Below are positions 5,266 to 5,313 of a DNA stretch of 5,717 nt, piece by piece. Source of the stretch: Octopus vulgaris (taxonomy: Eukaryota); assembly GCA_951406725.2 (NCBI GenBank), contig CATOCA020000100.1, forward strand, positions 1-5,717. Reading direction: 5' to 3'. Positions within the stretch are counted from its first letter, which is position 1. The number at the start of each line of letters is the position of its first letter. Under the pieces are notes generated by a model that saw only the letters and a list, made by a program, of their open reading frames with translations, was not told the origin of the DNA and ran no database searches. The position numbers and the translations under genes were made by a program.

Positions 5266-5313
5266 CGTTACAGTTGAAAAGGTCTCAAAATGACCGAAAC
5301 CGGTACTGAAATG
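5266..5313 (+). ncRNA. Minimal type I hammerhead ribozyme (U3-A8 core variant, palindromic stem III)
   Basis: Stem I is CGTTACAG (5266-5273) paired with CTGAAATG (5306-5313), with one A-A mismatch and one G-U pair. The core is TTGAAAA (5274-5280). Stem II is GGTC-tcaaaat-GACC (5281-5295), followed by GAAA (5296-5299). Stem III is the palindrome ACCGGT (5299-5304), and the cleavage triplet is GTA (5303-5305). The location at a PLE 3' end is where such ribozymes are known to occur. Confidence 0.82.

Follow-up and report, generated by a model that had tools for sequence, protein, structure and literature searches.

The window, that is, the whole stretch of 5,717 nt analysed here, is an entire small contig of the 2.8-Gb Octopus vulgaris genome and contains a 5′-truncated copy of a Penelope-like retroelement (PLE) with a hammerhead motif close to its 3′ end (Table 1). 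The element family has thousands of copies in this genome; a first look with the 3′ region of the window gave 1361 candidates, nearly all of the 40 that were scored being at 100% identity. Relative to a 4423-bp family unit, the window copy consists of +1680 to +1791 followed by +1984 to the unit end, and goes on to +98 past the predicted cut. It lacks the unit's initial 1.7 kb and another 190 bp, and with them ORF1 and the upstream hammerhead; the copy therefore has one hammerhead. The frame upstream of the motif encodes a reverse transcriptase (RT; RVT_1, E 1.6e-8) and a GIY-YIG endonuclease (E 3e-4, slightly below the curated cut-off), in agreement with the original prediction that the hammerhead belongs to a PLE.

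Table 1. Features of the analysed window (positions within the 5,717-nt stretch)
Feature	Position	Strand	Basis or remark
5′-truncated Penelope-like retroelement copy	2761..5403	+	ORF1 and upstream hammerhead missing
ORF2 remnant, 557 codons: reverse transcriptase, C-x4-C-x2-C linker, GIY-YIG endonuclease	2886..4559	+	
3′ UTR / pseudo-LTR with internal simple repeats, common to family copies	4560..5267	+	
Stem I 5′ strand, conserved part	5268..5273	+	sequence; sister-subfamily comparison
CAG, inner stem I 5′ strand	5271-5273	+	
Core box U3-U4-G5-A6-A7-A8-A9 = UUGAAAA	5274..5280	+	U3 = 5274, A8 = 5279
Stem II (4 bp) and 7-nt loop 2	5281..5295	+	GGUC 5281-5284 / GACC 5292-5295
G12-A13-A14, palindromic helix III half, A17	5296..5305	+	GAAA 5296-5299
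Palindrome ACCGGU, helix III half predicted to pair between two molecules	5299-5304	+	
A17	5305	+	base 5′ of the predicted cut
Predicted scissile bond; 5306 = +1	5305..5306	+	+1 = joint base at other loci
Stem I 3′ strand (CUG = 5306-5308)	5306..5311	+	sequence; sister-subfamily comparison
3′ cleavage product as far as copied	5306..5403	+	ends ~5369 (+64) and 5403 (+98)
Optional tail = 34-nt stretch between two genomic end points	~5369 to 5403	+	
(TA)n microsatellite at 3′ end of the window copy	5401..5435	.	5′ end also adjoins (TA)n

Organisation of the element family

Intact elements are head-to-tail units of 4419-4433 bp, a spacing seen for four hammerheads in L061/L062. Each unit has one hammerhead, located in the pseudo-LTR of the RT plus GIY-YIG element, and the start codon of the next ORF1 follows ~125 nt further on. 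Insertions often consist of two inverted arms, one reaching to ~+64 and the other to ~+98 from the cut. Among 22 arms at hammerhead-pattern loci, for which the +1 bases had to be present, 14 end at +60-68, seven at +92-101 and one at +90; since (TA)n follows at both kinds of end, either may in truth lie a few bases earlier. The 34 nt between them correspond to the optional tail of PLEs described in PMC8557442 and to the two RT start sites of the anole element (PMC11167929). The family presents RT, a CX2-5CxxC linker, GIY-YIG, inverted 5′-truncated arms, an optional 30-40-bp tail and (TA)n targets, and by domain order and insertion features it matches C-terminal-endonuclease PLEs of the Neptune/Nematis type as defined in PMC8557442, where the role of the hammerhead in endonuclease-bearing PLEs is called unclear.

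In the intact unit on the L061 minus strand, a 411-aa ORF1, absent from the window copy, overlaps a 784-codon RT-endonuclease frame in -1. A U-UUU-UUA slippery heptamer lies at this junction (~4545-4533) and is intact in 43 of 44 occurrences among fetched loci, some of them overlapping; simple folding revealed no pseudoknot or hairpin downstream of it. ORF1 frameshifts are mentioned for some PLEs in PMC8557442. Elsewhere in the window, positions 1-470 hold a 123-codon open frame with no Pfam hit and then a short (AAATC)n run, which together resemble a LINE 3′ end, and an island of ~160 bp between (TA)n tracts (2086-2250) resembles SINE-like sequences flanking many U6 copies.

A minimal hammerhead predicted to act as a dimer

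All parts of a type I hammerhead, with U3 and A8, can be read directly at 5268-5311 in the order and register originally proposed, including the core boxes N3-U-G-A-N-N8-A and G-A-A-A with U16.1-H17. A relaxed descriptor, written after the motif had been seen, found a single site in the window and produced a match in 2 of 200 shuffles. Rfam also placed a hammerhead on the motif (HH9, 5260-5324), at 19.7 bits (E 0.015) against a gathering score of 52; its output gives the best hit per clan only, and hammerhead models besides HH9 are absent from the list.

What did not hold is a stem III within one molecule: the helix cannot close because only 2 nt separate C15.2 from G16.2. In the monomer fold, forcing the A15.1-U16.1 pair gives +1.1 kcal/mol and leaving it open -4.1 kcal/mol, and the 71-nt strand is no more stable than its shuffles (z -0.72). 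Such an intramolecular helix, a feature of canonical monomers, is not needed in the minimal dimer class. In the minimum-energy fold predicted for two molecules, stem I is exchanged and the ACCGGU palindromes around helix III pair with each other (-25.7 versus 2 x -9.1 kcal/mol). By this modelled co-fold the window motif is a minimal dimer-type hammerhead, with the architecture described in PMC4209133. At one further locus (L170, G000:C20 14.336-14.337 Mb), short inverted and tandem pieces bring several family hammerheads within ~700 bp, some of them 41 nt apart, which makes a natural substrate for a dimer in cis.

The eight-position stem I that had been suggested is present in the window copy; as a conserved feature it was rejected, since sister subfamilies lose the two outer pairs (5266-5313 and 5267-5312). 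Its conserved portion, 5268-5273 / 5306-5311, comprises five pairs and one A.A mismatch.

The motif and its 3-8 pair are maintained

For comparison we used 30 copies of an older sister subfamily, ~80% identical to the window copy and with PLE protein hits. Measured against their majority state, none of the 23 positions of stem I, core and helix III is changed in the window copy, as opposed to 43 of 222 flanking positions (binomial 0.007, Fisher 0.018), a preferential conservation of core and stems over the flanks. Within the motif, changes in the older subfamily are limited to a 2-nt loop deletion and to A-U (29/30) in place of G10.1-C11.1, so that the sole two substitutions form one compensatory stem II pair. 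At this pair (5281-5295) the window copy has G-C, the older subfamily A-U and an intermediate subfamily G.U. Covariation is thereby seen for stem II; stem I is invariant in the lineage and so has no covariation of its own.

Positions 3 and 8 read U-A in 26, U-G in three and A-A in one of the 30 older copies. Among rows with the exact family backbone, few have a mispaired 3-8 state (C-A 3, G-A 2, U-G 2 and U-C 2 rows), and one sister locus, L107, carries C3-G8 on a motif otherwise identical to that of the family, the Watson-Crick pair being U-A in the window and C-G there. Together with the contrast between motif and flanks, these states bear out the original view of U3-A8 as a maintained pair and not decay. 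Judged from this comparison of copies, the hammerhead motif is under selection. In four contig-level sequencing runs, the variants listed spare the core except for U16.1-to-C in one run (102/271 depth), possibly a read-out of RNA.

The U3-A8 variant itself is not new. The original prediction treated it as a surprise; PMC3088659 (Perreault et al. 2011) reports U3-A8 in nature and cites earlier in vitro activity, and PMC4209133 (2014) reports it in Penelope-like hammerheads, with ~1,300 hits in Schistosoma. It is also the commonest core under the descriptor used here, with 3222 matches genome-wide (50 in the reversed control), followed by C3-G8 with 794 (44), U3-G8 with 433 (40) and C3-A8 with 104 (29). 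Paired or wobble 3-8 states therefore amount to 4449 matches versus 104 for C-A, counts that represent family expansions and not independent events. By eye, ~72 of the first 100 U3-A8 rows belong to the family of the window; the U3-G8 and C3-A8 matches show that mispaired cores amplify too, in part within tandem arrays and in retrozyme-like repeats of 353-360 bp. With a strict C3-G8 pattern there were 53 matches and, among 30 loci, L107 was the only one related to the window's family. In PMC3088659, the same exchange of C3-G8 for U3-A8 is a natural covariation described as rare, whereas in the octopus genome it is in the majority because of a recent family expansion.

U6 and foreign ribozymes are joined at the predicted cut

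Six chimeric loci were found in which the 3′ end of U6 snRNA is fused to the element, in all six exactly at +1 (window 5306). The full U6 3′ end with five T is in sense orientation and joined without extra bases at each of them, as in RtcB-made U6 chimeric retrocopies (4-6 T). Seven of the 20 rows from the joint search represent these six loci, and the other 13 are without a U6 end and without the family. A partner-blind search for U6 3′ ends (first 100 of 218) returned six rows, from five loci, joined to the family, all at +1; 50 loci of this list were fetched and the remainder judged from 27 flanking bases. In the two chimeras scanned, Rfam scored U6 at 67.1 and 55.5 bits, above its gathering score of 44. 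The element 5′ half is absent upstream of U6 in 6/6 loci, on which ground an insertion of U6 into the element at the DNA level was rejected.

U6 is not the only partner. At five loci (6/33 rows), +1 is joined to a foreign hammerhead 5′ half that stops at its GUC triplet, and a sixth half at +1 ends in GUA; 26 of the 33 rows were dropped as plain A17 point variants of the family and one as an ordinary junction. At L298, L299, L228 and L231 the same joint is present in both inverted arms, which end differently (+64, +98), and an altered form of this occurs in L206. No reciprocal chimeras, with a family 5′ half and a retrozyme 3′ part, were seen among 100 of 107 rows. Having lost the element's own 5′ half, chimeras can be assigned a parent core by subfamily: four of the U6 loci resemble the older subfamily and two the intermediate one, and among all chimeras only L206 belongs to that of the window (98% identity), with a partner 90% identical to a retrozyme-like unit.

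The joints at +1 independently mark the predicted cut after A5305. A literature search, with most subscription journals outside its scope, returned no paper describing chimeras of U6 or of ribozymes at the hammerhead cuts of PLEs, and the use of genomic chimeras at a scissile bond as a sequence-level indication of in vivo cutting is likely new here.

In the three other partner families traced, U6 joints also lie on the predicted hammerhead cut. One family has a canonical C3-G8 hammerhead and inverted arms, with no protein hit in 12 loci. A second is a PLE ~50% identical in protein to the window family, with a U3-A8 core; since its N17 is usually U, the joint can be read as +1 or as 0, and L312 is by eye a second matching locus. 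The third (L350-L361, partner of L310) is a PLE for which we read by eye a candidate A3-U8 core with a stem II of 2 bp and one additional U following G12; U6 is joined at the predicted cut.

Both RtcB and USB1 genes are present in the genome. Near-identical U6 genes form a tandem cluster at G000:C1 139.42 Mb, L292 shows a head-to-tail U6-U6 join, and most dispersed U6 copies, among those listed, are directly followed by starts of other repeated (SINE-like) sequences. Further U6 chimeras are L306, L316 and L317, the first two with inverted arms and the last two resembling the 3′ part of the A3-U8 PLE family.

Plain junctions around the cut

External 5′ junctions, in 100 of 138 rows, number 15 over -8 to -2, four at -1 (all within (TA)n), five at 0 and 13 at +1. 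The excess at +1 over the seven positions upstream (Poisson 4e-7) persists when the four chimeric loci are left out (nine junctions, Poisson 4e-4). In younger subfamilies, 41 junctions fall at +2 to +7. With junctions this frequent just past the cut, the pattern of plain junctions amounts to a step topped by a modest peak (P ~0.013), which could partly reflect pausing at the palindrome. These tallies were made by eye with 40 loci rechecked (two moved to internal, one to external), and rows dropped as internal indels or point variants were ~55 of 100 in the upstream set and ~9 of 62 in the downstream set. Three internal deletions end at +1 and, in L374, the element's own ORF1 region (+902 to +1162) is joined to +1.

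Probable cleavage and ligation, and their alternatives

We consider it probable that the U3-A8 minimal dimer-type PLE hammerhead cuts after A5305 in vivo in a minority of transcripts, that RtcB ligates the 5′-OH end at 5306 to RNAs with a cyclic phosphate, and that RT then copies the product. Hammerhead cleavage products carry cyclic phosphate and 5′-OH ends. In transcripts of the head-to-tail 4.4-kb units, two hammerheads are predicted to pair through ACCGGU and to swap stem I into the active fold; the window copy, with its one hammerhead, could cut only with a partner molecule. Cleavage, to which the genomic fossils point, would leave the cyclic phosphate on A17 and the 5′-OH on +1. RT would start at +64 or +98, run toward the cut and, on cut RNA, run off at +1, giving short inserts that start there; where the +1 end had already been ligated to U6, to a foreign hammerhead 5′ half or to a broken element piece, a chimera would be copied instead. 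Given an RT start downstream of the cut, a productive full copy would need a distal hammerhead that had either stayed uncut in the template or been re-joined.

In vivo cleavage at A17 is likely, as indicated at the sequence level by the chimeric joints and the junction peak. U6 and hammerhead 5′ halves share a cyclic-phosphate end (for U6 presumed in this animal by analogy with other species), which points to RtcB-type ligation. Joining of U6 to L1 by RtcB needs a cyclic phosphate on U6 and a 5′-OH on its partner, according to Moldovan et al. 2019 (PMC6789731). Chimeras and +1 starts are counted in tens among thousands of copies, so cutting would be infrequent or usually repaired.

The main rival is template jumping: the RNA would be cut in vivo, and RT, on reaching the cut 5′ end, would jump to the 3′ end of a second RNA without any ligation. 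It is a recognised alternative for U6/L1 chimeras (PMC11838501). Many arms do start at or just past +1 with no identifiable RNA partner, and no Rfam family was detected in 20 such loci. The partners that can be identified, however, are RNAs expected to end in a cyclic phosphate and are joined without extra bases, and arms ending at +64 and at +98 cross the same joint in the four two-arm loci, which one pre-joined template explains directly; jumping is in our judgement rather unlikely. A good deal more improbable still is that the motif never cuts, +1 ends being due to RT stalling at the GC-rich palindrome or to a host nuclease and the conservation to a protein-binding or folding role. Fold-back junctions do cluster at ACCGGU (four loci), junction density is still high over +2 to +7, and minimal PLE hammerheads cleave weakly in vitro (PMC4209133); yet stalling would put U6 on the exact scissile bond neither in six of six loci nor at the corresponding bond in three families of different sequence, nor would it join the cut end of another ribozyme to +1.

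The original prediction also had cleavage after A5305 define an RNA end, taken here as the 3′ end of the element's RNA and insertions. Chemically, the upstream RNA does end at a cut, and one older-subfamily locus (L262) stops at A17 and then enters (TA)n. Copies, however, extend ~64 or 98 nt past the cut, as 21 of the 22 arm ends above indicate, and therefore the cut does not set the element 3′ end; for insertions this reading is largely refuted, and we give it hardly any credence overall. A search for copies stopping at A17 gave 107 matches, and 8/8 fetched rows of the largest class are an unrelated SINE-like repeat. The cut is instead predicted to create a 5′ end, that of an RNA starting at 5306.

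Returning to cleavage followed by ligation, a more tentative extension, which we hold to be possible though doubtful, makes it the normal life cycle: tandem transcripts would be cut at successive hammerheads, RtcB would close unit circles, and RT would copy a circle from +64/+98 through the restored ribozyme, yielding tandem arrays and overshooting copies, with chimeras as mis-ligations. Unit circles would fit the tandem arrays and the copies whose 5′ ends overshoot the upstream hammerhead (-127, -185, -303). Our reserve has two grounds: read-through of tandem loci also explains such 5′ ends, and the anole ribozyme is dispensable in vitro. No full-length copy beginning at +1 was present among 20 long loci.

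Chimeras at the scissile bond are good, though indirect, evidence of cutting in those cells from which heritable insertions arose, notably for a U3-A8 minimal ribozyme. If cleavage and re-ligation are the normal life cycle, the chimeras would offer a genome-only read-out of the variants that work in vivo, namely C3-G8, U3-A8 and A3-U8 with one additional U following G12. The chimeras also hint at where the 5′-OH of U6 chimeras comes from and at how mobile RNAs may come to swap ribozyme halves, and the mapping of joints is a cheap genomic test applicable to any assembly.

In an abundant SINE-like repeat (L254-L261), the A-rich tail is preceded by a 4-bp stem followed by GAAAC, two further bases and GUA. 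It resembles the hammerhead 3′ half of the older subfamily stopped at the cut and is without the first core box; its rows were picked by the search pattern, which inflates the likeness.

Comparison with known systems

PLE minimal type I hammerheads, including that of Schistosoma Cercyon (Cervera and De la Pena 2014, PMC4209133), are alike in pseudo-LTR position, short helix I, palindromic helix III, predicted dimer and U3-A8 core, and likewise occur in thousands of mostly single, truncated copies. The octopus motif differs from them in its 4-bp stem II, with position 10.1 following position 9 without an intervening base, and its older subfamily in having A-U in place of G10.1-C11.1. The 2014 paper notes a lack of in vivo evidence, whereas the octopus family has genomic joints marking the predicted cut.

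The U6/LINE-1 pseudogenes of PMC6789731 share with our chimeras a complete U6 3′ end, about five T, sense joining to a retroelement RNA and retrotransposition. L1 is joined at variable positions with no preferred sequence, whereas the octopus PLE is joined at one bond, the predicted ribozyme cut; the octopus carrier is moreover a Penelope-like element, and halves of other hammerheads serve as partners too.

The anole Poseidon element PAc (Frangieh et al. 2024, PMC11167929) has, as here, a tandem organisation, and its two RT start sites beyond the hammerhead likewise delimit an optional tail. It has a C3-G8 core and one ORF, in contrast to U3-A8 and two overlapping ORFs in octopus. Its hammerhead mutants inserted normally in vitro and no RNA-seq reads started or ended at the cut; the octopus element has DNA fossils at the predicted one.

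Non-LTR retrozymes are likewise cleaved by hammerheads and then ligated by RtcB, which circularises their monomers in vitro (Cervera and De la Pena 2020, PMC7229834). They are short, non-coding and carry canonical hammerheads, whereas the window motif belongs to an autonomous RT-endonuclease element. Retrozyme-type tandem repeats of 353-360 bp occur in the octopus genome as well, and one supplied a chimeric partner. Those at L163, L164, L168 and L169 have canonical type I hammerheads, and the repeats fall into C3-G8, U3-G8, U3-A8 and C3-A8 subfamilies; C7-G8 is a CpG in them, so G8-to-A may be a mutation hot spot.
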